DNA of 64,000 nucleotides from an uncultured Clostridium sp. (GCA_946497775.1 CAMMLS010000002.1:50653-114652), one strand, 5' to 3'. Counted from the stretch's first letter, positions 7,835-55,997 are shown. Notes: generated by a model from the sequence alone, not told the origin. A program made the numbers and translations.

Positions 7835-8029
7835 TTATTTATGTAGTTGCTTATCAACCCAGTTCTTATACAGAACTGCTGTCAAGGCAACGTTTAATGT
7901 TAAAGATAACATTAAGGATAATATTAAAAATAGTATCGCTTTAACCATAAACATCACCACCCCTCCTACGAAGAATCGTAAAAATTGGTGGCAAAACCAC
8001 ATCTGCTTATCATCATTTCCTATGGTCAT
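7835..8029 (-). CDS. possible small membrane protein (64 aa)
   Basis: ORF with one TM helix, ending just before the bidirectional terminator. Weak support. Confidence 0.25.
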   Translation of the reverse strand: MTIGNDDKQMWFCHQFLRFFVGGVVMFMVKAILFLILSLMLSLTLNVALTAVLYKNWVDKQLHK

Positions 8030-8162: not shown

Positions 8163-8650
8163 TTACCAATTTTCATATCTTTGACTTATATTAATATCTG
8201 CAATATTATTCATATCTTCTTCACTTAATTCAAAGTTAAAAATATCATAATTTTCTGCAATATGGTCTGGATTGCTTGAACCAGGAATAACTATATATCC
8301 TGCTTGTAATTGCCATCTTAATATAATTTGTGCTGATGTTTTGTTGTATTTTTCAGCTATTTCTTTAATTGTTTCATTATTAAAGATTTCAGAAGTATGA
8401 CCTCTACCACCAAACGGATACCATGATTCTATTATAATTCCATATTGACTGACATAGTCTTGTAATTCTGTATTTTGATAGTATATATGATTTTCATTTT
8501 GAATTACTGCTGGCATAATTGTTGCATAAGATAATACTTCATCTATTTCTTATTTTGTATAGTAATTTGATATTCCAATTGATTTTACCTTCTCACTTTT
8601 TCCTAATGTTTTATCCCATTCTTGACTTAAATTTAATTTTTATTCCATAA
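8163..8650 (-). pseudogene. aldo/keto reductase remnant: C-terminal half only, with an in-frame TAA
   Basis: 117-aa ORF IIESWYPFGG...IILRWQLQAGYIVIPGSSNPDHIAENYDIFNFELSEEDM is an AKR C-terminus. The upstream frame continues ...EWDKTLGKSEKVKSIGISNYYTK*EIDEVLSYATIMPAV with a stop. The N-terminal ~120 aa are absent. Confidence 0.7.
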
Positions 8651-8771
8651 TATACCTTCTTTCTTAATTATTATTTATATTTTGATGTTTATTATTCTTT
8701 AATAGTTTATTTATTATTATAACTTATCTTTTTTAAAATAGCCAATACTTATTTTGAATAATTTATCATAG

Positions 8772-9186: not shown

Positions 9187-9927
9187 CTATTGTTCAACAA
9201 CTTCTTTTATTAAATCTCTTAAATATGGTCTTTTTCTATTAGGTAAATTATCTAATTGTGCTAATGAATTTTCCTTTTTTAAAAATATAATTCTATTAAA
9301 TTCAACCTCTAAATTATTCTTAATTAAATATGCTTTATACTCTTCAAAATGCTGGTTTATCTCATCTTTTGTTTTATCAATTTCCCCTACCGCTAAAAAT
9401 CCATAACCATTTCTTCTTTTTTTAGGATATTCAATATATTCTATATTATAATTAATATCATCTAAGTTTAGATTTAGTTCTTCTTTTAACTCTCTTTTTA
9501 TGTTTAAATTAATATTAATTTCTCCATTTTCAATATCAGTAATATCAATTCCTCCACCAGGGATTTGCAAACAATATGGTACTGATGTTGTTTTATTCAT
9601 TTCTCCTATTACTAAATAATTATCTTTTGTAATAAGCAAAATTCCACCCCAAGGTGAACAACATCTATATTGTTCTTGCTTAATTCCAACTCTTTCATCA
9701 TATAAATAATGAGCATAATTAGATTTAGTAACAAGCATTTGTATATTCTCTTTGGTTTCTGTTATTGTTTCTACAACATAATATTGTCCATTATATAAAT
9801 TAGGATTTTCTTTTATGGCATTATTCCAAAACTCATCAATATTTTTTACAAGCTCATCAGGCAAGTTAATTTGTCTGTTCTCAAATTTTAATATAAAAGG
9901 TTTTTTTATTTTTGAAATATTACTCAT
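9187..9927 (-). CDS. NUDIX-like fold hydrolase (non-canonical Nudix box)
   Basis: Motif ...PGGGIDITDIENGE...NIKRELKEELNL resembles Gx5Ex7REUxEExGU but does not satisfy the spacing exactly. Confidence 0.4.
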   Translation of the reverse strand: MSNISKIKKPFILKFENRQINLPDELVKNIDEFWNNAIKENPNLYNGQYYVVETITETKENIQMLVTKSNYAHYLYDERVGIKQEQYRCCSPWGGILLITKDNYLVIGEMNKTTSVPYCLQIPGGGIDITDIENGEININLNIKRELKEELNLNLDDINYNIEYIEYPKKRRNGYGFLAVGEIDKTKDEINQHFEEYKAYLIKNNLEVEFNRIIFLKKENSLAQLDNLPNRKRPYLRDLIKEVVEQ

Positions 9928-9930
9928 TTT

Positions 9931-11292
9931 TTACCTCTTTAATTCTAACAACGTTACACACTCCACATGACTCGTGAATGGAAACATGTCTACTGGGGTT
10001 ACTTCTTTTATTTCATATTTTTCATTTAATATGGCTACATCTCTTGCAAATGTTGCTGGGTTACAGCTTATGTAGATTATTTTTGGTGGTTGCAGATTAA
10101 GTATTGTGTTTATTGTTTTTGTATCTAAGCCTTTTCTTGGGGGGTCTACAAATACTACTTCTGGTTTTATGTTGTTTTGAAAAATTATTTTTGGCAGTAC
10201 GTTTTCTACTTCACCACAATAAAATTCGGCATTTTGTATATTGTTTATTTGGGTGTTTTCTTTGGCGTCTTTTATTGCATTTTCTATTATTTCTATTCCG
10301 TAGACTTTTTTTGCTTTTTTTGATGCAAATATTCCTATTGTTCCTATTCCACAATATAGGTCTAGTATTGTTTCTGCTCCTGTTAGGTTTGCATATTCTA
10401 AGGCTTTTTCGTATAATGCTTCTGTTTGGACTGGGTTTGTTTGATAAAATGATAGTGGAGATATTTTAAATTTATAGTCTCCTAATATATCATATATATA
10501 TCCAGGTCCATATATTGTTTCGTTTTTTGTACCTAATATTACATTTGTGTTTTTTGGATTGTAATTTTTTATTATTGTTTTTATTTGCAGATATTTGCTT
10601 GTTATATATGTAATAAATTCTTTTTCTTTTTTAAAGTTATTATCGTTCATTACTAATATTAACATTATTTCTTGTGTTATTACTCCAATGCGAATTACAA
10701 TATGACGCATTGTTCCTGTTAGGTTTTGTTCATTATACACTGATATTTTATTATCTTTTATATATTCAAAAACATCTTTTGCTATTTGCTCTGATAGTTC
10801 GTTTTGTATTTGGCATTTTTCTACTGGGATTATTTCATGTGAACGTTTAGCATATACTCCCATTACTGGCTTTCCTTCTTTGTTTAGTCCTAATGGGTAT
10901 TGTAATTTATTACGATAATAAAAAGGATTACCCATGCCTATTGCTTTGTTTACTTTCATTTCTTTGCCTAATGCTTTTTTTAGGCAATTACGCACTATAT
11001 TTTCTTTTATTTCCAATGTTGCTTCATATTCTAAAAATCTTAAACTGCATCCGCCACATCTTTTATATGTTTTACAATCTTCTATTATTCTTTGTGGTGA
11101 TTTATTAAGAATTTCCAAGGCTTTTGCAAAAGCGTAGGTTTTATTCACTTTTAAAATTAATATATTTACCTTTTCTCCTTTTACTGTTTGTGGCACAAAT
11201 ATAGTAAAATTATCGATTTTGGCAATTCCTTCTCCATCTATTCCGTTATCTATAATTTCTACAATGCGCTTATCCCCTTTTTTTAATTCCAT
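9931..11292 (-). CDS. rlmD: 23S rRNA (uracil-5)-methyltransferase, RumA/RlmD type
   Basis: N-terminal TRAM domain, Fe-S Cys cluster (CGGCSLRF), SAM motif DLYCGIGTIG, and a PPRKG motif. Confidence 0.85.
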   Translation of the reverse strand: MELKKGDKRIVEIIDNGIDGEGIAKIDNFTIFVPQTVKGEKVNILILKVNKTYAFAKALEILNKSPQRIIEDCKTYKRCGGCSLRFLEYEATLEIKENIVRNCLKKALGKEMKVNKAIGMGNPFYYRNKLQYPLGLNKEGKPVMGVYAKRSHEIIPVEKCQIQNELSEQIAKDVFEYIKDNKISVYNEQNLTGTMRHIVIRIGVITQEIMLILVMNDNNFKKEKEFITYITSKYLQIKTIIKNYNPKNTNVILGTKNETIYGPGYIYDILGDYKFKISPLSFYQTNPVQTEALYEKALEYANLTGAETILDLYCGIGTIGIFASKKAKKVYGIEIIENAIKDAKENTQINNIQNAEFYCGEVENVLPKIIFQNNIKPEVVFVDPPRKGLDTKTINTILNLQPPKIIYISCNPATFARDVAILNEKYEIKEVTPVDMFPFTSHVECVTLLELKR

Positions 11293-19700: not shown

Positions 19701-21291
19701 ATGAAAAACATAAAAGGATATGTAAGTTTTGTACTTCATGCCCATCTTCCATTTGTGTATCATCCAGAAAGCGAAGATTACCTAGAAGAACAATGGCTTT
19801 TTGAAGCAATTTCTGAAACTTACATACCATTATTATTAAATTTTAAAAAATTAGAAGAGGAGCATGTTGATTTTAGAATAACAATGTCACTTACTCCTCC
19901 CCTTCTTTCTATGCTTGATAATGAGCTTTTACAAAAAAGATATATCAAGTATTTAAAAACACATATAGAACTATGTGAAAAAGAAGTTGTAAGAACAGCA
20001 TATGATGAAAGATTAAATAAGCTTTCACATTACTATTTAGAAAGATATACAAACGATTTACATGTATTTAAAGATGTATATAACTGTAATTTAATAAATG
20101 GGTTTAAACATTTTCAAGACATTGGTGTACTTGAAATAATAACATGTGGTGCAACACATGGATACTTTCCTATTTTATATGTTAATGAAAACACAATACG
20201 TGCTCAAATAGCTGTTGGTGTGCAAACATATGAGAAATATTTTGGAAGACGTCCTCGAGGAATTTGGCTTCCTGAATGTGGTTATGTACCACAAGCGGAC
20301 AAGTATTTACGTGAATTTGGAATAGAATACATATTAACAGAATCACATGGAATTCTATATGCAGACCCTACCCCACTATATGGCACATTTGCTCCAATAG
20401 TATCACCTGGCGGAATTGTTGCATTTGGAAGAGACATAGAATCTTCTAAACAAGTATGGAGTTCTATAATTGGATACCCTGGTGATTTTAATTACAGAGA
20501 ATATTATAGAGACATTGGCTTTGAAGCAGATTATGATTATATAAAGCCATATATAGCTTCAAATGGTGTTCGTGTACATACAGGTATAAAATATTATCGT
20601 ATAACTTCTAAAAGCGATTTTAAAGATTATTATAACCCAAGATGGGCAATGGATACAGCAGAAAGACAAGCTCGGTCATTTCTTAGATTCAAGAGTTGCA
20701 CAAATAAATTATCTATCTGAACATATGCATGTTCCCCCACTTGTTGTATGTCCATACGATGCTGAACTATACGGACACTGGTGGTATGAAGGACCTTATT
20801 GGTTATACATATTATTTAAAAAGATTTATTATGATGAATGTAATTTTAAACTAATAACCCCTGGCGACTATATAGACATGTTCCCAGAAATACAAGTAGC
20901 ATCTCCATGTATTTCAAGCTGGGGTAGAAATGGATATAGTGAAGTTTGGTTAAATGGAGAAAACGACTATGCTCACAAACACTTGCACGTAGCCGGAGAC
21001 AGAATGGTAGAACTTGCACACCTATTCCCTAACGAAAAAGATGAGCTAAAAAGAAAAGCACTTAACCAATGTGCCCGCGAATTGCTACTTGCTCAAAGCA
21101 GTGACTGGCTATTTATAATAACAAACGGAACCATGGTAGATTATGCAAAACGTAGAATAAAAGATCATATAGGTAGATTTACTAAACTATATGAACAAAT
21201 AAAAAATGATAAACTAGACGAAAATTATTTAAGCATGATAATGGAAAAAGATAAGATTTTTCCAGATATTGATTATATGATATACTATTAA
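19701..21291 (+). CDS. GH57-family 1,4-alpha-glucan branching enzyme, split by a -1 frameshift near 20675-20685 (poly-T)
   Basis: ORF1 carries HAHLPFVYHPE...; ORF2 starts MHVPPLVVCPYDAELYGHWWYEG. The alternative frame reads continuously as ...HFLDSRVAQINYLSEHMHVPP. Confidence 0.8.
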
Positions 21292-21336: not shown

Positions 21337-21831
21337 TTATAAAATATCATCTAATAGCATTTGTGAATCACCTATGTAGAAGTTTCTATTTCCATTTAAA
21401 TTTTTACATTTTATTATTCTAAACGTATCATACTTATATATTAGTGATCCTCCATCTTGATACATATCTTTATAAGCAATTCCATTGCTTACATCTTCTT
21501 CTACCTTTTCTATTATTTTATCAATTGTTATTCTATTACTTCTTAATGCATCCTCAAAAGAATATGTTTCTTCTCCAATAACTATACTTACATCTCCATT
21601 ATATGTATATATATCATAGTCATATTGTTCCATTTCACTTCTATCTATTATTTTATTTAATTGCTTATCTCCTCTTTTAGTAAATTTAATCTCAAAACTT
21701 ATATCTTTACTTGTGTTAACTATATTATTTTTCTCGTTATTTGTTGTATTATTATTTAAATAATACGCAAGACCTACTGTTATTACTAAAACTATACAAA
21801 TAAGTGCTATTATTAAATATTTTTTGTTCAA
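21337..21831 (-). CDS. secreted/membrane-anchored hypothetical protein (probable TTG start)
   Basis: 164 aa with a strong RBS (GGAAGGGGG) and a 0A-box promoter module upstream. Confidence 0.5.
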   Translation of the reverse strand: MNKKYLIIALICIVLVITVGLAYYLNNNTTNNEKNNIVNTSKDISFEIKFTKRGDKQLNKIIDRSEMEQYDYDIYTYNGDVSIVIGEETYSFEDALRSNRITIDKIIEKVEEDVSNGIAYKDMYQDGGSLIYKYDTFRIIKCKNLNGNRNFYIGDSQMLLDDIL

Positions 21832-21859
21832 ATTTTTCCCCCTTCCTTCTTAGTTTTTC

Positions 21860-21960
21860 TTTGACATTCTATTGTTATTTTACTTCATCTAATTATAATA
21901 TTCGACATGTGAAAGTTTTTTCCTTATTTAATTATCACCAAAATATTTCTATTTACTATG
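21860..21960 (-). promoter_or_regulatory. promoter module copy 1 with a perfect Spo0A 0A box (TGTCGAA on the coding strand, 21901-21907) followed by TATAAT/TAAAAT
   Basis: The coding-strand read is ...cacaTGTCGAAtattataattagatgaagtaaaat.... Confidence 0.55.
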
Positions 21961-22060
21961 TTAATACTACGTCGTGAACAAGTTCTAGGATTTTGTTTTT
22001 TATTTCATCAAAACTTAAAACTTTTTGCAATATATTTATATTTATTTTTATGTCAATTTA

Positions 22061-22384
22061 TTAAACAAATGCTGAAATTATATTATTAATTGCAGATACT
22101 ATAAGTATAATATAATCTTTTATTTGTTCTACTATTCCCTTTTCTTCTTTTTCTTTTGGCATTACATATACACTTGCATCTATTCCTTGTGATTCGGTAT
22201 TTTCATTTGAAGTATTTGACTCTCCTGGCTCCCTTATTTCTTCTACTCTTTCTTGGCTAGAAGTTAAGGCAATTTCTCCCCCTGCAAGTTTTTCTTCTCC
22301 TGGTTTGAAAAATACCATTGCCACGAGTACTACAGCTACAATTACTAAAACTACTGCTATCCCTATTAGTACTTTTTTCTTCAT
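22061..22384 (-). CDS. truncated paralog (N-terminal signal anchor only) of the 267/270-aa secreted-protein family
   Basis: MKKKVLIGIAVVLVIVAVVLVAMVFFKPGEEKLAGGEIALTSS closely matches MQKKILVGVVIVAIVVIGLTAMAVLKTGGEEKLVGGATAPVSS of 23680..24483. Confidence 0.5.
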   Translation of the reverse strand: MKKKVLIGIAVVLVIVAVVLVAMVFFKPGEEKLAGGEIALTSSQERVEEIREPGESNTSNENTESQGIDASVYVMPKEKEEKGIVEQIKDYIILIVSAINNIISAFV

Positions 22385-22500
22385 GTATTTTCCCCTCCTT
22401 ATTTTATTCTTCTTACGTCTTTTAACTTCATCTAGTTATATTATTCGACATAGGATAACTTTTCCCTTATTGTTTTAGCAATTTTAATTCTTTATAGCAT
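22385..22500 (-). promoter_or_regulatory. promoter module copy 2 with a 0A box at 22445-22451
   Basis: Coding strand reads TGTCGAAtaatataactagatgaagttaaaaga, nearly identical to copy 3. Confidence 0.55.
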
Positions 22501-22505
22501 GATAG

Positions 22506-23246
22506 TTATATAAATATACTTGTTTCTTCTAATTTATATGATATCATTTGTATAATGTTTTTTATACTTGGCTTTTTTAATTCTTGAAATTTAAAATATC
22601 CTTTTAATCTCTCTGATTCACAATTATAATACATATTTTCTGTTGCCCTTGCAATATTACATTTTACATTATGTACAGTCGTGTTATTAATCAAAGCAAT
22701 ATAGGGGTATATTTCTTCTTTTAAATTATTAATCTGTTCTATTTTATTTTCACTTATATATTTTATTGTTTCTATTAAATATAAAGTTCCTTTGTGTGAA
22801 ATATTATATCCTAAATATAATATTTCTTCTTTAATCTTTCTTTCTAAATTCTCATCTAAGCGAATTTGTTCTTTTTCATGAACTAATTCTAAAATTTTAT
22901 TTGTAATTTCTTCAAAAGTAAGTACTTTCTGTAATACGGCATATATCATTTCATTTTTTCTTAATTTGTTTATATATTCAACTTCTCCACTAATTACTAT
23001 ACAAGATTTTTTATACTTTTCTCTTTTTTCTTCATTAATCATGTCTAATACTTCAATTCCATTATATTTAGGAATTTTTAAATCCAATAAAAATACATCA
23101 ATATCTTCTCTATTATTTAATAGTTCAATGGCTTCTTTCCCATTTATAGTAATATTAGTAACTTTTATTTCATTACCTTTATTAATATAATCCATTAGCT
23201 TTTTAGCATAGAATATATTATCTTCTATAATTAATACATTAATCAT
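22506..23246 (-). CDS. response regulator with a Spo0A-type C-terminal DNA-binding domain (Spo0A paralog; short linker)
   Basis: REC domain (IIEDN...FLLDLKIP). The C-terminal domain aligns along its length to the Spo0A_C domain (HIKGYLYL/SHKGTLYL; LYPDIAKKFNTT/IYPYIALINNTT; KPTNSEFIAMVADKL/KPSIKNIIQMISYKL). Recognition helix is TVHNVKCNIARA versus TASRVERAIRHA. Confidence 0.75.
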   Translation of the reverse strand: MINVLIIEDNIFYAKKLMDYINKGNEIKVTNITINGKEAIELLNNREDIDVFLLDLKIPKYNGIEVLDMINEEKREKYKKSCIVISGEVEYINKLRKNEMIYAVLQKVLTFEEITNKILELVHEKEQIRLDENLERKIKEEILYLGYNISHKGTLYLIETIKYISENKIEQINNLKEEIYPYIALINNTTVHNVKCNIARATENMYYNCESERLKGYFKFQELKKPSIKNIIQMISYKLEETSIFI

Positions 23247-23337
23247 TTCTTCCCCTTCTAGTAAATATTAATATATAACTTCTTTATTTATTATACCATA
23301 TATGGTTTGTTTCTTCAATTATTATCGATTAATAGCA

Positions 23338-23372
23338 AAAAAGACAGCAATTAAAAATGCTGTCTTTTTGCT
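23338..23372. terminator. bidirectional rho-independent terminator
   Basis: AAAAAGACAGCA-loop-TGCTGTCTTTTT. Confidence 0.6.
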
Positions 23373-23462
23373 ATTAATCCATTTTCTAATTATCATTTTT
23401 TATATTCACTTTGCAATATTGAATCTAATGTTTCCAATTCACCATTTTCATTATTTTTCACC

Positions 23463-23693
23463 TTAATTGTATTCATTAGATTGCAATGATTTTGTATTTG
23501 TATTTAGTATAGCTTGATTTGTGTTTTCAATATTTGTTTCAATTTCCCTTAATCCATATTTCAAATAAGCAATTGAGTATACTCCATAATCTTCATTGTA
23601 TTTTAGATACATCAAATATGTTTTTCCATCTTGTATTTCTATATCATCAGACATTGTTTCCTTTATATATATTGTTTTTTTAATTTGAAGCAT
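23463..23693 (-). pseudogene. C-terminal fragment of a secreted-protein family paralog
   Basis: 76 aa ...GKTYLMYLKYNEDYGVYSIAYLKYGLREIETN... is homologous to the C-terminal parts of the 267- and 270-aa paralogs. It overlaps the stop of the upstream gene. Confidence 0.4.
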
Positions 23694-24483
23694 TTGACTC
23701 TTCCTCTGCTACTTTTTTTATTTGTGATAATATTGAGCTAAGTGTTGTAACACTACCAGTTCTATTATCTTTTACTTTTATTTTAGAATTATCTTTTAAA
23801 TTTAGTCCCTTAGATGTATCTATTTCTCTTAGTCCATATTTCATAAACTCTATCTCATATCTTTCAAAATCTGTGTTATATTGTAGTAACATATAATAAG
23901 TTTTTCCTTGTTCTATTAAAATATCATCAATATCAAGTTTTAATATATATTCGTCGTCTTGTGGTATCTCTTTTAAAAATTGAATTTCATTAGAGAATGT
24001 AGATGTCCCTTTTTTATACTCCGAAAAAGGAAGGTATCCTCCTGATTTTATAAATGGTATAGCTTCTTCGTCTATTTCTCCCTTTAATACTTTTTCTACT
24101 TTTATTGTACCCACAGTTTTTACAGATGAATAGTTTCCAGTAGTTGGATTATAATTTGTTCCACCTTCAATATTTTGAACTGTTCCTATAATTATAAAAT
24201 CTGTCGCATTTCCTATTTCACCAGTATCTGCTATGTCAAAAATATAACTTACTTCTATGGGTGCTCGATTTTGTATTTTTTGAATTTCTTCTAGTAATCC
24301 TTCTGGTAATGGGAATATTTTTTCTTGTGACCTTATTTTTGCGATTTGTTCTGGGCTAGAAACTGGTGCAGTTGCTCCTCCCACGAGTTTTTCTTCTCCT
24401 CCTGTTTTTAAAACTGCCATTGCTGTTAGTCCTATAACCACAATCGCTACAATTACTACTCCTACTAGTATTTTTTTCTGCAT
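23680..24483 (-). CDS. secreted/membrane-anchored protein, paralog family member B
   Basis: 267 aa with an N-terminal anchor and conserved IIGTVQNIEGGTNYNPTTGNY...YGLREI. Confidence 0.6.
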   Translation of the reverse strand: MQKKILVGVVIVAIVVIGLTAMAVLKTGGEEKLVGGATAPVSSPEQIAKIRSQEKIFPLPEGLLEEIQKIQNRAPIEVSYIFDIADTGEIGNATDFIIIGTVQNIEGGTNYNPTTGNYSSVKTVGTIKVEKVLKGEIDEEAIPFIKSGGYLPFSEYKKGTSTFSNEIQFLKEIPQDDEYILKLDIDDILIEQGKTYYMLLQYNTDFERYEIEFMKYGLREIDTSKGLNLKDNSKIKVKDNRTGSVTTLSSILSQIKKVAEEESNASN

Positions 24484-24600
24484 ATTTTTCCCTCCTTATT
24501 CTATTTTATGTCTTTTAACTTCATCTATTTATATTATTCGACAAGTAATATTTTTTCCCTTATTTTTAGTTGTTTCAATTCCCCAAAAATATTTCATTTT
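24484..24600 (-). promoter_or_regulatory. promoter module copy 3 with a 0A box at 24537-24543
   Basis: Coding strand reads TGTCGAAtaatataaatagatgaagttaaaaga. Confidence 0.55.
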
Positions 24601-24720
24601 GTCCAATGCCTCACATAATGAAAATGAACCCTCCTTATTAACACTTTTTTGTCTAATAATTTGGGTTCACTTCATAATATATCAGTGCTTTTCAGGATGT
24701 TAATTAATTTTCTTTTAATT

Positions 24721-25533
24721 TTAGTTAGTGTTTTTTATAACAGATTTAGGAATAATTGAATCTAACGTTTCATATTCTCCATTGGTATTGTTTTTTACTC
24801 TAATAGTTGTATATGCCTCATTGTTCAATATTTTTAAGTTTGCATTAAGTAAATTTTGATTTGTACTTGTTAAACTTTCTTCAACTTCTCTTAGCCCATA
24901 CTGTAAATATTCAATTGAATACCTATCATAATAATCCGAATATGCTATATACATTAAATAAGTTTTATTCTCTTCAATTTCAATATCACCAGCCATTGTT
25001 TCTTTTACATATTTATTTTCTTTATCTTCTTGTGATAAATTATTTAGCCCCATTTTTTCTAGATGCGCTTGTGGTTGTGATTTTATATATTCTCCTAATG
25101 GTACTACACCACCTAATCTAATAAATGATATTTTATCTTCATTTAGATTTCCTTTTATTACCTTATTTACTTTTATTGTCCCAACCGTTCTAGCCATTAC
25201 ATAATTTTCTGTTGTAGGATTGTAATTTGTCATTCCTTCAATACTTTCAACAGTCCCAATAATTATCCACTCGGCATCATTTGCGATAGTTGTATTATCT
25301 GACATATCTGTCAAAAAACTTCCACTACTTTCTAAATTCATATAAATCTGTTCTTCATCTAAATTTTCATTTATTGGTATTATTCTCTCCTTTTCACGTA
25401 TATTACTATTTTTAGCAACTTGTGGCTGTTCTGTGTTTTCTTTATTATTGTTAATAAGAATACATGTAATCGTAATCACAAATATTACTACAATAATTGA
25501 AAATATTATTAATAACTTTTTTTTCATAATCAT
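24721..25533 (-). CDS. secreted/membrane-anchored protein, paralog family member A
   Basis: 270 aa, IIIGTVESIEGMTNYNPTTENY...YGLREV. Starts 10 bp after the metalloprotease gene, so probably co-transcribed with it. Confidence 0.6.
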   Translation of the reverse strand: MIMKKKLLIIFSIIVVIFVITITCILINNNKENTEQPQVAKNSNIREKERIIPINENLDEEQIYMNLESSGSFLTDMSDNTTIANDAEWIIIGTVESIEGMTNYNPTTENYVMARTVGTIKVNKVIKGNLNEDKISFIRLGGVVPLGEYIKSQPQAHLEKMGLNNLSQEDKENKYVKETMAGDIEIEENKTYLMYIAYSDYYDRYSIEYLQYGLREVEESLTSTNQNLLNANLKILNNEAYTTIRVKNNTNGEYETLDSIIPKSVIKNTN

Positions 25534-25542
25534 CCACTCCTT

Positions 25543-26658
25543 TTAATATTTATATATTAATGCTTGTCTATCAATTGTTTGTGGAGTAGTAGGTACTCCT
25601 GACCTATTTATAGTTGGATACATAAGGCTACTTTTACTTATATGATGTTGTAAACCGAATGCATGTCCTATTTCATGCGCAATGGTTCCATATCTTTGAT
25701 CCGTATTCACCTGATTAGTAACCAAATATGTATCTCTATTTATAGAAACTTTTGCAAAATTCCAGCCAGTATATTCTGGATAAAGAATATTATCATGACT
25801 TGGTGTATGACATGTGGTTGCTGCTAGCCAATTATTTCCAAGTTCAGTAATGTTATCAAAATAGTCATTACCCACCTCATAAAAATCTACTGCTGTTGAA
25901 GCATTAGTTGAAGCTTGACTTAATATTATTGTTGGATTCCATCTAGATGCTCCAGTAGATATATAGCTAGAATATTGCGAAGCTGTTGAATCTACATAGT
26001 ATGTTTGATATCCGATTCCCTTAGTCATTCTATAAGGATATGCAGGGGTAGAATCTTCCAGTGCTTCAAAACTCCATAATTGATTGGCTGAACCTGTCCA
26101 TGTTGATATAAATACATTTCCATTCGAGGTAGAAGAAGTTCCTGATCCTGAACCATTTCCAGTACCATATACTGTCAGAGCTAAGTTCGGATTAGATTTT
26201 AATCGTATAGCAAATGAATCTCTACTTATTAATTGAATTATAAAGAATTGACAGTCATCATCTCCTGTTCCCCATATATCTACATTATTCCCTGATACTA
26301 TTGAACCGCTAGCACTTCCTCCTGTTCTTAGTACATCTAATACTCTGTTGCCTCCTTTACTACTACACATTGGATAAATTCTATATGCATCTTCATTTCC
26401 AGACCTATTATAATATACTACTCTAAATCTTTGTTCTTGACTTCCATCTTTAGTCCATTGTATAACATTCGTTCCATTTGCATCAGTTCCTAAATTTACA
26501 TTTAGATACTTGCCACTTGCATTGTTTTTTATATTATATATCATCCCATTTGTGATTAGTAATGTTTCAGCTGCAAAAATAGACCTATTGCCTAATAACA
26601 TTAATGTAAATACTAAAAAAGTTAAAATAAATAAAATTTTTGTTGTAATTTTTTTCAT
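25543..26658 (-). CDS. secreted ricin-B-lectin domain plus matrixin-like (metzincin) zinc metalloprotease
   Basis: Signal peptide, N-terminal beta-trefoil-like region (QxW-like repeats), HEIGHAFGLQHH motif and an SLMYP Met-turn. Confidence 0.75.
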   Translation of the reverse strand: MKKITTKILFILTFLVFTLMLLGNRSIFAAETLLITNGMIYNIKNNASGKYLNVNLGTDANGTNVIQWTKDGSQEQRFRVVYYNRSGNEDAYRIYPMCSSKGGNRVLDVLRTGGSASGSIVSGNNVDIWGTGDDDCQFFIIQLISRDSFAIRLKSNPNLALTVYGTGNGSGSGTSSTSNGNVFISTWTGSANQLWSFEALEDSTPAYPYRMTKGIGYQTYYVDSTASQYSSYISTGASRWNPTIILSQASTNASTAVDFYEVGNDYFDNITELGNNWLAATTCHTPSHDNILYPEYTGWNFAKVSINRDTYLVTNQVNTDQRYGTIAHEIGHAFGLQHHISKSSLMYPTINRSGVPTTPQTIDRQALIYKY

Positions 26659-26859
26659 ATTTACCTCCTTTTTACCATACCTTTGATTTCCAATTACATT
26701 GATTGTATGGCTTTAAAAAAATAATGTTTTATAATATAAATATCCTCCTTTCCAATTTATTTTATGTCTCTCCCTATTAATCCTGCATAGATTATATATC
26801 AAAAATACTTTTTTTCTCAAAAAGATACAAAAAGATACTTTTTGTATGATGTATCTATT

Positions 26860-26960
26860 TCTCTTAACCCATATATTTATATTGTTCGACAAAAAATATT
26901 TTTTCCATTATTTTTAATTGTTTCAATTTTGCGGACATATTTCATTTTGATTTGTGTTTG
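26860..26960 (-). promoter_or_regulatory. promoter module copy 4 with a 0A box at 26885-26891 (about 230 bp upstream of the metalloprotease gene)
   Basis: Coding strand reads tTGTCGAAcaatataaatatatggg. The upstream part of the module is conserved with copies 1-3. Confidence 0.45.
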
Positions 26961-51890: not shown

Positions 51891-52448
51891 TTACATTAAT
51901 TTCTTTCCATCACTAAATGCTTGCCCTACTTTTTTTGTCACTTCGTAATAACCATGCATAAGTGGGTCATATGCAATGGTATTCATTTTTGAAATGTCTG
52001 GTTTTCCGTTTTCGTCTAGATATTTTTCATCAATTGATAAGTTTACTATTTCTCCAAGTACTCCATATTCTCCATCAATTTCTACGGCTTTACATTCCAT
52101 GCATATTGGATATTCTTCAATTATTGGTGCATTTACATGCTCACTTTTTATTGCGTGCATTCCTGTTTTTTCGAATTTATCTTTTACATTATTTCCAGAA
52201 ACAATTCCTAAATAATCTGATTCTACAATATGGTCTTTATCTGCTAATGATACAGTAAAGCATCCTGTTCTTTTTATGTTTTTTGCTGTTTTGTGTCCTT
52301 CGCTAATATTTAGTTTGATTTGTGTGTAATCATAAGCCATTCCCCATGCTGCATTCATTACATCAACACTCCCGTCTTCATTATAAGTTGCAATCATTAA
52401 AACTGGCATTGGAAATATTGCTGGTACAATTTTTAAATCTTTTCTCAT
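51891..52448 (-). CDS. flavin reductase-like FMN-binding split-barrel protein
   Basis: 185 aa, ...PVLMIATYNEDGSVDVMNAAWG.... Confidence 0.65.
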   Translation of the reverse strand: MRKDLKIVPAIFPMPVLMIATYNEDGSVDVMNAAWGMAYDYTQIKLNISEGHKTAKNIKRTGCFTVSLADKDHIVESDYLGIVSGNNVKDKFEKTGMHAIKSEHVNAPIIEEYPICMECKAVEIDGEYGVLGEIVNLSIDEKYLDENGKPDISKMNTIAYDPLMHGYYEVTKKVGQAFSDGKKLM

Positions 52449-52573
52449 TTTACATTCCTCCTATTATTTTATTATTTCCTAAATATTACTATATATTATT
52501 TCTACTTAAACACTCCAACTCCTTGAAGCTATGTTTCTACATGTTCAAGTGCTTCTTCCTTATTTTTTACTTA

Positions 52574-53392
52574 CTATTTGAATTCAACTCTAATGTTTCC
52601 TATTCCACCATTTATTTCAATACGATTTTTTCCATCTCCAAAAATTTGATTATCTTCCATTTCTTCTCCATCAATTTTTACTGAGCCAATTCCTTTTTTA
52701 GTTTTTATTCTGTAATTTTCTTTATCTCCTTCTAATGTAATATTTAAACTTCCAATACCAGCATCTATTTCACTTTCTCCTTCAAGCATGGCAGTTAGAT
52801 TTACTTCGCCTATTCCCATTCCTAAGTCTAAGTTGTTTATTGTTCCTGCAAGGATACTAACTTTTCCTGCTCCACCTTCAATATCACATTCTCTTGATAC
52901 TTTTAAATTTCTTATTTCTGTTTCTCCTGCACCTAATTCAAATGATAATTTTTGTGTATTTAAGTTGTCTATGCTAATCTTTCCTGCCCCAGTAGTTAGT
53001 TTTACTTCTTCGAATTTTAAATTTTCTGGTATGTATATAATTAAATCTAACTCTTCGTTATTAAAAAACCAATTATGTTTTTTCTCTTTTATTTCTAATT
53101 TTTCGTTATTTTGTTTTGCAGTAATATCTGTGTTATTTGTTTCAATACTTAATACATTACCTGTTTTTATAGTTAAGTTAGTATAATTTACATCAATTTC
53201 TAATGAATTAATATTTAAATCCTGAAATGTTAAATTTTGCATTTGGCTAATATTTATTTCATTATCATTTTTTAGTCCCAAAACTCCTGATAATGCAAAA
53301 AGCCCACCTAGTATTGTTGAAATAATAGTTACTATAAGAAATATTGCAAATGCTATTGCAAAATATTTTATTATTTTTTGAGCTGTTGTCAT
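52574..53392 (-). CDS. DUF4097-type beta-strand repeat protein (YvlB-like putative adhesin)
   Basis: N-terminal TM plus repeated GAGKISI/GIGEVNL/GIGSLNI beta-helix-like repeats. Confidence 0.6.
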   Translation of the reverse strand: MTTAQKIIKYFAIAFAIFLIVTIISTILGGLFALSGVLGLKNDNEINISQMQNLTFQDLNINSLEIDVNYTNLTIKTGNVLSIETNNTDITAKQNNEKLEIKEKKHNWFFNNEELDLIIYIPENLKFEEVKLTTGAGKISIDNLNTQKLSFELGAGETEIRNLKVSRECDIEGGAGKVSILAGTINNLDLGMGIGEVNLTAMLEGESEIDAGIGSLNITLEGDKENYRIKTKKGIGSVKIDGEEMEDNQIFGDGKNRIEINGGIGNIRVEFK

Positions 53393-54072
53393 TTTATTTC
53401 AACACCTCCAAATAGGCAAGTAGCATTAACATATATTGTATGAGCTTCTGCATTTTCTTTATATTTTCTGTCATCTGAAACTCCACCAAATATTGATGAT
53501 GACTTAACTTTTACTTTTAGATTTTCAGGTACATATATATCTATTCCTCCAAATATACTACTTGTATTTATAACAGTATCTGATTCTATAATTGCTTTTC
53601 TTAAATCGCATTTTACTCCTCCAAATACTGCTGTTAAGTCTGCCCCTGTAAATGTTTCTCCATCAAAATTTACATCCTGACCTGAAAAAGTTGCACAATA
53701 TTCATGTTCTTTATTTTTCTTTGAATTAAGTTCTTTTATTTTTTCATTTACTTTTCCGCCTATTGTATCTTTAAAAATCATTGATAGTCCAATTACTACT
53801 AATATTGTTGGTAATATTAATTTCCATAGTAAATTAAAATCTAATATATCTTGGCAAGCCAAAAGTAATGCTATTCCTATTAGTAAGCCTATAATGTTTC
53901 CCGTTTTTTCTCTTTCTTTAAATAATCCTATAAAGCATGGTATTATAATTATTAAAGTCCACCATCCATCAAAGAATATCTCTATATTTGTAATTCCTAG
54001 TGCATTTCCTCCAATTATTAAACCTAAAACAATTAGAACTAATCCCCATAATATATTTCTAAATTTTTTCAT
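53389..54072 (-). CDS. LiaF-like membrane protein (DUF2154 C-terminal domain)
   Basis: 4 TM helices plus C-terminal IFGGIDIYVPENLKVKVKSSSIFGGV. Confidence 0.6.
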   Translation of the reverse strand: MKKFRNILWGLVLIVLGLIIGGNALGITNIEIFFDGWWTLIIIIPCFIGLFKEREKTGNIIGLLIGIALLLACQDILDFNLLWKLILPTILVVIGLSMIFKDTIGGKVNEKIKELNSKKNKEHEYCATFSGQDVNFDGETFTGADLTAVFGGVKCDLRKAIIESDTVINTSSIFGGIDIYVPENLKVKVKSSSIFGGVSDDRKYKENAEAHTIYVNATCLFGGVEIK

Positions 54073-54164
54073 ACTTTTCCCCCTTATATGTATTTACAAT
54101 TTATAATCATATTAACATAAACTAAGGGAAATATCAATATTAAACTAACTTGTTTTATAATGTG

Positions 54165-55997
54165 CTATTTATTTTTCTTTGTATATTCTATTTCATATTT
54201 ATTTAATAACTCTTCAAATAATTCTATTGTAATCTTTCCCTGTTTTAAGGCTTCTTCTGCTGTTATCATATCTCCGTTTTTAAAATATAATTGCACATAT
54301 TTAGTTTTTTGATTTGGATAGTAATATTCATAATTTTCATCTTCATAAAATTTATATTCTCCATCTGCGATTCTGGATTTATCGAACTCTTCTAGCATGG
54401 TATAGTCTATTAATCTTGGTCCATCTGTTTCTTCTCTTTTTTCTAGTATATCGCTATTGTCTACTTTTAGAGCAAAATATGGATTTTCTGAATTTGCTTC
54501 TTGCATAAATAATATAAATGTATCTTGAAAAAAGCAATATCTTGGCTCGTTTGAAAATTCCAAATATTCAGTTACCATTGTGGATTTGCTAGATAGGTTG
54601 CAACCTTTTTCATTTAATGAAAAATTTACATTTTGTATTACTTCATAAATATAAAGTCCATTTGAATTTTTTATTTCTTTGCCATATAGTTCATTATAGC
54701 TAATCATTCCATTTATTTTTATGTATGGAACTCTTAACTCATCTTTTTCTGAAAAATTGGTATCTTCTTTATATGTATTTGATTTGTTTTTTATGTCTTG
54801 ATAATATTCGTCAAATGATTTTTTGTCATCTGTTCTATAAAGTATTATTTCGTCACCTTCTTTGGTGTTTAGTTTTATTGCAAAATCATTACTAAGCCAA
54901 GGGGTGTCTTGCATTCTATTATAGAAAAGTATTTCCACATTTTTATTCATCTTTTCTGGGCTAGCATTATTTATTCCAAAATATTTAATAAATTCGTCTC
55001 CATCTCCAAATTTCCATGCATAATCATCACTAAAATTATCAAATGATTCTAAGAAATGTAGTTCTTTATTTAGTGTAGCATCTATTTTGTATCCATTTGT
55101 AAGTGTCCTTTCTACATTTATATTATAATCTTCTGAGTCTAGCATTTCTTTTGTAAAGGTGCTTGAATTTAAGTCGTTTGCAATTTGTAAATTTTCGCCT
55201 CCTAATTCTATTTTATCTTTTCCTAGTTTTTCTTCTAAATCTTTCCATGCTAAATCTAATGTGCCAACCCATAAATTATTTATGGTGTTTTCATCTAGTG
55301 TGCTTTGATATGTCGGATTCATTGTTAAGGTGCTGAATTGTTTATAAATTTGTGTTACTGCATAAACTATTCCGCTTAAAGCAACAGTTGCAACTATTAG
55401 AATAATTACTACTTTTGATACTTTATTCATTCTATCAAATCCTTTCTTTAGCAGGATTTTTCTTAATTGCTTTTTCCCTCTATGTACAAGTGTTTTTGTA
55501 TTTTGGAGAGTTTGTCCTAATATTTTAGATGTTTCTTCATATGATAGTCCTTCAATATTTACTAAGTATATAGCATTTTTATATTTATCATCTAATTCTT
55601 CTATTGCAATTAGTAACTCTTTTTTAGTTTCTTCTCTTGTTATAATTTCTAGAATATCCTCGTCAGTTCTTTCATTGTCGTTTAAAATGTATTGTTCATT
55701 AATCTCGTTTCTTCTTTTTTCTACATTTATTTCATTGTAAGCTTTGCTTTTTGCAACTAGATATATGTAATATTTAAAAGAACTATTTTCACGTATTTTA
55801 TTCTTCATAATATATATAAAAGTTTCTTGTGTTAAGTCTTCTGCTTTTTCATAGTCTTTTACTATGTTAAAAATAAAATATTTAATTCTATTTTTATATT
55901 TGTTATAAAGATATTCAAAGGCTTGTTTTTCTCCGTTTAAATAATCATTATATAATTTTTTATCTAAATCTCTCTCCATTTTTCTACCTGCTTTCAT
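54165..55997 (-). CDS. ECF sigma factor fused in one polypeptide to a TM helix and a ~400-aa extracytoplasmic domain
   Basis: Sigma region 2 (…AEDLTQETFIYIMKN) and region 4 (LSYEETSKILGQTLQNTKTLVHRGKKQLRK), then a VVIILIVATVALSGIVYAV TM helix, then a large C-terminal domain. Confidence 0.65.
   Translation of the reverse strand: MKAGRKMERDLDKKLYNDYLNGEKQAFEYLYNKYKNRIKYFIFNIVKDYEKAEDLTQETFIYIMKNKIRENSSFKYYIYLVAKSKAYNEINVEKRRNEINEQYILNDNERTDEDILEIITREETKKELLIAIEELDDKYKNAIYLVNIEGLSYEETSKILGQTLQNTKTLVHRGKKQLRKILLKKGFDRMNKVSKVVIILIVATVALSGIVYAVTQIYKQFSTLTMNPTYQSTLDENTINNLWVGTLDLAWKDLEEKLGKDKIELGGENLQIANDLNSSTFTKEMLDSEDYNINVERTLTNGYKIDATLNKELHFLESFDNFSDDYAWKFGDGDEFIKYFGINNASPEKMNKNVEILFYNRMQDTPWLSNDFAIKLNTKEGDEIILYRTDDKKSFDEYYQDIKNKSNTYKEDTNFSEKDELRVPYIKINGMISYNELYGKEIKNSNGLYIYEVIQNVNFSLNEKGCNLSSKSTMVTEYLEFSNEPRYCFFQDTFILFMQEANSENPYFALKVDNSDILEKREETDGPRLIDYTMLEEFDKSRIADGEYKFYEDENYEYYYPNQKTKYVQLYFKNGDMITAEEALKQGKITIELFEELLNKYEIEYTKKNK

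Follow-up and report, generated by a model that had tools for sequence, protein, structure and literature searches.

A putative sigma-H-type promoter cassette in four copies within a variable gene island of an uncultured Clostridia bacterium

Promoters of the transition-phase and sporulation-onset sigma factor sigma-H (SigH, Spo0H), among them those of spo0A, spoIIAA and, in C. difficile, cwp27 and lplA, pair a -35 element AGGAWWW with a -10 element (TGT)MGAAT in a 21-nucleotide (nt) register; A/T-rich sequence and a short leader follow GAAT. The same features are found in a module of roughly 65-95 bases that stands in four copies (c1 to c4), one before each of four gene units, in a chromosomal stretch of an uncultured gut Clostridia bacterium; "the window" is this whole stretch of 64,000 nt (27% GC), in which PolC, Ffh and glycogen-synthesis genes are also present. 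The scores of the module are mid-range among validated SigH promoters. It differs from them in the AGGG of c2 and c3 and in being a multi-copy cassette, and the products of its genes are secreted or membrane proteins from a variable island, unlike the usual SigH targets in sporulation or division. We think it fairly probable, from sequence comparison, that the module is a sigma-H-type promoter cassette that has been copied within a strain-variable island.

Other described systems share further features with this locus. The 0A box of Spo0A (TGNCGAA) has an exact counterpart, TGTCGAA, in every copy of the module, and tandem 0A-like boxes occur in the island of L004, one of the related contigs (L001 and so on) that were fetched with the response regulator encoded among the copies. 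Spo0A operators usually contain at least two boxes, whereas the module has one, which coincides with the sigma-H -10 element; as TGTAGAA or TGTCGAA serves simply as the -10 element in many SigH promoters of C. difficile, the box in the module need not be a Spo0A site. The island regulator resembles genuine Spo0A in having a receiver and a Spo0A_C domain, and its likely DNA sites resemble tandem 0A boxes in being phased direct repeats. It differs in its shorter linker, its recognition helix, its associated motif (nTA(T/A)CTTTTT as opposed to TGTCGAA) and the segment, 3 residues shorter, that aligns with the part of Spo0A contacting sigma-A. Birth-and-death arrays such as toxin/immunity and surface-protein islands share with this island paralogs of 40-70% identity, truncated remnants and varying copy numbers; unlike in those arrays, the promoter cassette here has also moved alone (c1) and has apparently been exchanged between sites.

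Homology and boundaries of the module copies

Every gene from 21337 to 26658 lies on the minus strand, and the four upstream regions are therefore read as reverse complements. The copies are as follows.

21866-21929, minus strand: module copy c1, with -35 AGGAAAA at 21918-21924 and -10 CGAAT at 21900-21904 within TGTCGAAT
22413-22490, minus strand: module copy c2, core AGGGAAA-N13-CGAAT at 22443-22467
24498-24601, minus strand: module copy c3, core AGGGAAA-N13-CGAAT at 24536-24560
26856-26949, minus strand: module copy c4, degenerate, core ATGGAAA-N13-CGAAC at 26884-26908

Homology among the four copies was demonstrated by a repeat family of four 62-nt members with 66-100% identity (21870-21931, 22413-22474, 24506-24567 and 26854-26915) and by the exact 15-mer TGTCGAAYAWTATAA, which occurs four times in 64 kb, always within a module, and not once in 100 dinucleotide-preserving shuffles. 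A separate repeat pair joins c3 and c4 over 80 nt (85% identity). The composite AGGRAAA-N13-CGAAT was observed three times against 0.03 expected. Intact copies read AGG(A/G/T)AAA, 13 nt and CGAAT, with TGT directly before CGAAT. An original prediction, made from this sequence alone, had placed four homologous upstream modules here and had described copies 2 and 3 as almost the same, and both points are borne out: c2 and c3 share TGTCGAATAATATAA[C/A]TAGATGAAGTTAAAAGA (TGTCGAATAATATAAnTAGATGAAGTTAAAAGA, with n variable) and differ by a single base. That the likeness might be mere low-complexity A/T similarity is answered by the alignment, in which the conserved columns include TGTCGAA, AGG and GATGAAG. 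TGTCGAA itself is exact in all four copies and occurs five times in the whole window; the fifth occurrence is intergenic (47770-47812, plus strand), is preceded at a distance of ∼30 nt by TGTCGTA and lies 5′ of a gene of the LtaS-like sulfatase family (45790-47751, minus strand).

The extent of homology depends on the pair of copies compared. DNA alignment of c2 and c3 runs for 262 nt (75%) and takes in the module, the leader and ∼150 nt of coding region; that of c3 and c4 covers 95 nt (83%) and the module only; and that of c1 with c2 or c3 spans 64-109 nt, comprising module and leader only. Within a 55-nt core, intact copies are 75-91% identical, and identity in the flanks falls to background. 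The c2 copy is 96.6% identical to its ortholog in L006. These boundaries do not support the view that module and downstream gene were duplicated as a unit in all four cases: only c2 and c3 share leader and coding sequence, c1 precedes an unrelated gene for a 164-residue protein, and the metalloprotease gene, whose ATG lies 233 nt from c4, has a different promoter of its own. A promoter/leader module, as opposed to an interspersed repeat, is nevertheless what was found, as it is confined to the island, has one orientation and in c1-c3 stands 60-76 nt 5′ of a start codon.

A "far-upstream" stretch had been thought common to all four copies, with a possible role as UP element or second operator. 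All four do share its proximal part (coding strand AATAAGG(G)AAAA), while its distal part is missing from c1: AATTGAAACAAyTAAAAAT and the further AAATGAAATAT are common to c3 and c4 and, loosely, to c2. An UP element, to which the alpha subunit of RNA polymerase binds, would be an A/T-rich region at -40 to -60. The region 5′ of AGG is A/T-rich, as is the whole genome (27% GC), with conservation limited to c3 and c4 and, in part, c2. Most of the shared stretch is best read as the -35 element (AGGAAAA) of a promoter of sigma-H type and does not have to be taken for an UP element or second operator; the "box" TGTCGAAT is best read as the -10 element of that promoter. At the other end, ∼20 nt beyond the predicted start are conserved as well (TAGATGAAGTTAAAAGAC), and a TATAAn hexamer is part of the conserved sequence. 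On reading the sequence, no second 0A-type box was seen at +/-10-11 nt in any module, each having one box, and a 26-mer of the module had no match in a JGI metagenome scan.

Fit to sigma-H promoters

The sigma-H consensus has a -10 element (R)NNGAAT(W), with the A of AGG and the G of GAAT 21-22 nt apart. In c1-c3 these two bases are 21 nt apart and the -10 element is GTCGAATA; c4 has GAAC. Compared with AGGAWWW, the -35 element of c1 (AGGAAAA) is exact, that of c2 and c3 (AGGGAAA) has one mismatch and that of c4 (ATGGAAA) fails. The same architecture, including TGTCGAAT, is present 60-80 nt 5′ of four genuine spo0A genes (in L041, L044, L049 and L054; for example GGGAGGAATACATTATCATTTGTCGAATAC), which score 382-419 bits with TIGR02875 against a cut-off of 200. 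It is also shown by C. difficile SigH promoters with mapped starts (spo0A, lplA, ssuA and cwp27); many SigH promoters of that species have TGTAGAAT or TGTCGAAT as their -10 element, and the cwp27 promoter (CATAAAGGAAAATATTCTTTTATGTAGAATTATAAT...) closely resembles the module (PMC7438776, Table 3).

A two-block SigH position weight matrix (PWM) was built from 34 of the C. difficile promoters in the same table, of which 15 have a spacing of 21 nt and 19 a spacing of 22 nt. With this matrix c1, c2 and c3 scored 16.3, 14.9 and 14.2 bits. For comparison, the median for the real promoters was 16.2 bits (leave-one-out), and the spo0A promoters of the four loci above scored 13.8-22.3 bits. Low scores were obtained for c4 (3.0 bits) and for a decayed copy in L001 (L001_3184, 7.4 bits), which are exactly the copies with another promoter close behind. 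Among all window positions c1-c3 rank 3rd, 6th and 9th, and the other high-scoring positions, where their location was checked, lay mostly inside genes or on ribosome-binding sites. The sole other comparable score found at an intergenic, gene-facing position is a 14.8-bit match (AAGGAGTT...AGTAGAAAT; 52482-52526, minus strand) 5′ of a flavin-reductase-like gene (51891-52448, 185 residues). This gene had been considered as frr, which would have provided a SigH control within the window, and was rejected on account of its flavin-reductase-like product.

Several observations weigh against a sigma-H assignment. Shuffled 64-kb sequences peak at 13.9-19.7 bits with the same matrix, and because shuffles of a 27% GC sequence reach such values, the scores of the module indicate compatibility as opposed to proof. 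The c2 and c3 copies have AGGG instead of AGGA, and no sigH, spo0A or known SigH-dependent gene was found among the scanned open reading frames (ORFs) of the window. Finally, sigma-H needs neither the conservation past the start site nor the TATAAn hexamer, and these features therefore require recent common descent or a second factor.

From the fit described above we infer sigma-H dependence, start sites and timing of expression. Starts are predicted 8-11 nt after CGAAT, which would place the 5′ ends on the minus strand at about 21889-21892, 22432-22435 and 24525-24528 and give purine-rich leaders of ∼45-60 nt. Sigma-H would transcribe three units, namely the 164-residue protein gene behind c1, a 107-residue remnant behind c2 and a 267-residue paralog behind c3, and these would turn on as growth slows, alongside the early sporulation programme. 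The c4 copy would be a decayed one (AGG to ATG, GAAT to GAAC), with the metalloprotease operon driven instead by an adjacent, repeat-bearing promoter of sigma-A type. Since the -10 element also spells the 0A box TGTCGAA, phosphorylated Spo0A could, speculatively, modulate the module in addition; the identity of the two elements may be functional or incidental.

Other interpretations of the module and its leader were considered and set aside. The leaders of c1-c3 are without structure (minimum free energy, MFE, 0 kcal/mol) and the hairpin after c4 is weak (z = -0.85), arguing against a structured leader or attenuator; the module leaders had no Rfam match up to E = 1 except noise. A leader mini-ORF, ATGAAGTTAAAAGAC (MKLKD...), has no ribosome-binding site and varies in length (2, 7, 10, 10 and 15 codons), that of c1 stopping after 2. 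In a by-eye comparison with consensus sequences, none of the SigD, SigB, SigE/K/F/G, ECF and TcdR-like promoters fits the module.

The gene island and its Spo0A-like regulator

In related contigs the island occupies the site between ytxC and a GH57 branching-enzyme gene. In the window, its genes and other features are as follows.

21337-21831, minus strand: 164-residue membrane-anchored protein, assigned to c1; outside the paralog family
22061-22384, minus strand: 107-residue, internally deleted "B" paralog remnant, assigned to c2 (BLAST)
22506-23246, minus strand: orphan response regulator of 246 residues, a divergent Spo0A paralog (Pfam Response_reg and Spo0A_C)
23290-23318, minus strand: promoter of the regulator gene, sigma-A-type (TTGAAG-17-TATAAT with TG extension)
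∼23338-23371, minus strand: hairpin terminator just 5′ of the regulator promoter (sequence reading)
23463-23693, minus strand: 76-residue ORF, C-terminal remnant of a third ("C") paralog (BLAST)
23680-24483, minus strand: "B" paralog of 267 residues, assigned to c3 (BLAST among related proteins)
24602-24697, minus strand: long stem-loop between the protease operon and c3 (folding energy compared with shuffles)
24721-25533, minus strand: "A" paralog of 270 residues, membrane-anchored, second gene of the protease operon (BLAST, AlphaFold model)
25543-26658, minus strand: secreted metalloprotease of 371 residues (Pfam RicinB_lectin_2, 1.7e-16; Peptidase_M10, 2.3e-07)
26791-26841, minus strand: second promoter module, AAAGTATCTTTTTGTATCTTTTTGAGAAAAAAAGTATTTTTGATATATAAT, with 10-bp-phased GTATCTTTTT repeats overlapping TTGAGA-18-TATAAT (11/12 consensus)

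BLAST comparison of the window proteins and their relatives in related contigs defined a paralog family with three branches, A, B and C, whose members in the window (24721-25533, 23680-24483, 22061-22384 and 23463-23693) have no Pfam match. The 267-residue B protein is 68-69% identical to the products of 310-312-residue genes in L001 and L006 and 41% identical to A. Residues 1-51 and 34-106 of the 107-residue ORF match residues 1-51 and 237-310 of the 312-residue L006 gene product, and the 76-residue ORF, which overlaps the 267-residue gene and follows it, is 76% identical to residues 169-240 encoded by L001 7021-7818. The 164-residue protein belongs to no Pfam family; its homologs (40-56% identity) adjoin the regulator in L004, L093 and L095, all without the module. 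The metalloprotease combines a ricin-type lectin domain with a matrixin-like zinc site, HEIGHAFGLQH. For A, an AlphaFold model (pLDDT 85) had top PDB matches that were all of the NTR/TIMP fold (agrin NtA, TIMP-1/2 and complement C345C), at weak values (E ∼1e-3; TM score 0.26 by query length, 0.5 by target length). Because its gene follows that of the matrixin-like protease in one operon, a role of the modelled A-type paralog as an inhibitor or immunity protein is conceivable.

Comparison of the same site in contigs with regulators 79-100% identical revealed gene turnover. The island of the window is also carried by contigs such as ENA ERZ2790584 NODE_1234. L087 equals the window in island content; L006 is without the unit of B1 and the C remnant and has an intact 312-residue B gene after the regulator; L001 has the order protease-A-B-C-regulator with nothing after the regulator; and in L002 the protease gene and most of A are gone. 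Paralog numbers vary at the ytxC/GH57 site, and the window itself holds two remnants, in keeping with the birth-and-death array that had been proposed. The ytxC-proximal intergenic region contains AAATGAAATATGTCC even in the module-free L093, and the c3 lineage carries this segment too, which suggests that c3 was derived from the c4 position, flank included. Similarly, the ytxC-proximal module is of subtype "a" in the window and of subtype "b" in L001, suggesting that copies have been exchanged between sites. On the reading favoured here the copies differ in origin: promoter and gene were duplicated together in c2/c3, the promoter alone was copied with some upstream flank from a c4-like copy to c3, and c1 reflects promoter capture or replacement before an unrelated gene.

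The response-regulator gene sits amid the module copies, between the c3 unit and c2. Its product scores 71.5 bits with the Spo0A equivalog model TIGR02875 (cut-off 200) and retains the conserved phospho-acceptor residues (Asp, Asp and Lys). The recognition helix reads HNVKCNIARATE, as opposed to SRVERAIRHAIE in Spo0A; in our alignment the Spo0A version does not vary among three genuine Spo0A proteins and structures 1LQ1 and 1FC3. The regulator family comprises 275 representatives at E ≤ 1e-30 (clusters at 50% identity), nearly all from gut metagenome bacteria. Some Clostridiales genomes are described in the literature as having two or three spo0A paralogs; our literature search found no characterised Spo0A-like paralog with a motif of its own, and CLAU_1957 (PMC12335938), considered as a relative, is an unrelated winged-helix regulator.

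The second promoter module lies directly downstream of c4 and is likely to be the promoter of the metalloprotease operon. It is also found in L001 (3213 and 6925), L006 (395 and 4679), L004 (8719), L093 and L095. Phased arrays of this kind consist of 2-4 units of nTA(T/A)CTTTTT or close variants just 5′ of a TATAAT-like -10 element, and they adjoin the regulator gene in L007, L009, L010, L012, L013, L016, L018, L023 and L025 and, further, in L030, L032, L033, L036, L043 and L098, in many loci with regulators merely 35-52% identical. Fourteen of 24 arrays lie ≤200 nt from the regulator gene, a zone that makes up 7.2% of the sequence (p ∼1e-10, or ∼1e-6 with the background raised to 15%). The GTATCTTTTT-type array is therefore the likely binding site of the island's Spo0A-like regulator and a better candidate than the module, which is present only in loci with a regulator at least 79% identical. 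Across 33 loci, covariation between the regulator helix and the repeat unit followed no clear rule. Given its different helix, the different co-occurring motif and the absence of the module at ≤70% identity, the local regulator probably does not read TGTCGAA and acts elsewhere than at the module.

0A-like elements occur in two related contigs. In L031, AAAGTCGAAAAAAGATAAAAAAA or its reverse complement forms arrays at 8650-8680, 9660-9685 and 9900-9925 that surround the regulator and a paralog gene, and a duplicated cassette of ∼85 nt holds two of the three; AAAGTCGAAAAAAGATAAAAAAA is a 0A-like half-site mixed with a GATAAA half-site, which hints that the sites of the family descend from 0A boxes. 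In L004, whose regulator is 61% identical and lies at a different chromosomal site, a ∼90-nt cassette of terminator and promoter is duplicated before the regulator and paralog genes (7860-7900 and 11030-11070) and carries tandem 0A-like boxes, TGTAGAAtaaTGTCGAA, 10 bp apart.

Further features were noted in and around the island. The stem-loop at 24602-24697 (MFE -28 kcal/mol, z = -3.95, none of 200 shuffles equally stable) has GUGAACCC/GGGUUCAU as its inner stem, with a U-rich tail after it, is kept in sequence in L001 and is probably a terminator or insulator of the protease operon. Ahead of c1, ∼200 nt 5′ of the 164-residue protein gene, TTGACA-16-TATATT (22029-22056, minus strand) matches the sigma-A consensus at 11/12 positions and could be a second promoter for that gene or a chance match. 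At the GH57 border, the branching-enzyme gene (19701-21291, plus strand) is split into overlapping ORFs of 339 (GH57) and 188 (BE_C) residues in different frames, as it also is in L001 (8755-10345), L003 and L087; a frameshift that has been conserved, a genuinely split gene and an assembly error common to these contigs are all conceivable. Elsewhere, the region 52574-55997 (minus strand) encodes a 610-residue protein with N-terminal ECF-type sigma regions 2 and 4 and a long extension; a LiaF-like and a DUF4097 "toastrack" gene follow. This ECF-like fusion protein (54165-55997) has no evident link to the module.

Alternative readings and wider meaning

The TATAAn hexamer raises the question of a sigma-A promoter, with TATAAT or TATAAA as the -10 element, a poor -35 element and an activator or repressor, of which genuine phosphorylated Spo0A is the most obvious candidate, bound to the TGTCGAA box in the spacer. 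TATAA is invariant in intact copies, right after TGTCGAAyAw, and TGTCGAA is the canonical Spo0A 0A box. Boxes of this type recur in such islands, as the tandem TGTAGAAtaaTGTCGAA of L004 lies upstream of a sigma-A-like promoter before both regulator and paralog genes. In the module, however, the hexamer 17 nt 5′ of TATAAn is AAAAAC or AAAAAA, there is no TG extension, and a consensus scan gave no sigma-A promoter at TATAAn. Spo0A is not known to activate sigma-A promoters from a single box between -24 and -18, where the box of the module would lie, and an AGG block at the exact sigma-H distance would be left without explanation. A sigma-A promoter, which would put the 5′ ends just ∼5 nt further downstream than sigma-H, we regard as unlikely. 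It is quite unlikely that the module is an operator, activating or repressing, for the island's own Spo0A-like regulator, with either the 0A-like TGTCGAATAA or the post-start segment (opposite strand GTCTTTTAAC, like one GTATCTTTTT unit) as its site. Such binding would account for the conservation beyond the start site, the gene of the Spo0A_C-bearing regulator is central among the four copies, and the mixed 0A-like and GATAAA half-sites of the AAAGTCGAAAAAAGATAAAAAAA arrays occur beside a regulator 41% identical (L031). Yet the module is absent from L093 (70%), L095 (65%), L004 (61%) and L098 (59%), of which the first three keep essentially the helix of the window (L098 differs at two positions) and all four keep arrays. 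Moreover, the residues aligned with E213, R214 and R217 of Spo0A are K, C and A, one weak half-site in the module compares with 2-4 phased units in the arrays of the family, and GTCTTTT is expected ∼15 times by chance in the window.

A different explanation is that the copies are alike by descent only, through recent segmental duplication and gene conversion, that the conserved blocks carry no common regulatory function, and that the likeness to sigma-H promoters arose by chance in one ancestor. All copies derive from one ancestral sequence, and the four matches therefore count as one event; similar SigH PWM scores are reached in shuffled sequence, and other promoter and terminator cassettes have also been duplicated in these islands. 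Descent alone sits poorly with the way homology between c1 and the other copies and between c3 and c4 ends sharply at the promoter edges, the neighbouring genes being unrelated, and with the 91% core identity of c3 to its L001 ortholog when the downstream proteins are 68% identical. Mutations at key positions, in addition, fall in copies that are backed by another promoter. We consider this explanation very unlikely, and a sigma-H-type promoter cassette remains the reading that we favour.

A multi-copy sigma-H-like promoter is in itself unsurprising to a specialist; more unusual are the adjoining Spo0A-like regulator family with a candidate motif and the TIMP/NTR-like paralogs beside a matrixin-like protease. 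These elements can be combined, tentatively and with more doubt than confidence, into a two-input circuit around a re-specified Spo0A paralog. In such a circuit, a regulator family of ∼275 clusters would have changed its recognition helix and would now read 10-bp-phased nTA(T/A)CTTTTT repeats, possibly derived from tandem 0A boxes, and through these repeats the regulator would turn on the secreted matrixin-like metalloprotease. Sigma-H-type cassettes would separately turn on the membrane-anchored TIMP/NTR-like paralogs, possible inhibitors or immunity proteins, with the cassettes moving between genes by duplication and gene conversion. If the favoured sigma-H reading of the module is right, the island shows that a ready-made alternative-sigma promoter can be copied before different genes, rewiring the timing of their expression, and that promoter copies degenerate when their role passes to another promoter. 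Gut Clostridia would also have an uncharacterised Spo0A-family branch with its own candidate motif and target genes, which would offer an entry point for asking what a duplicated sporulation master regulator does after divergence.

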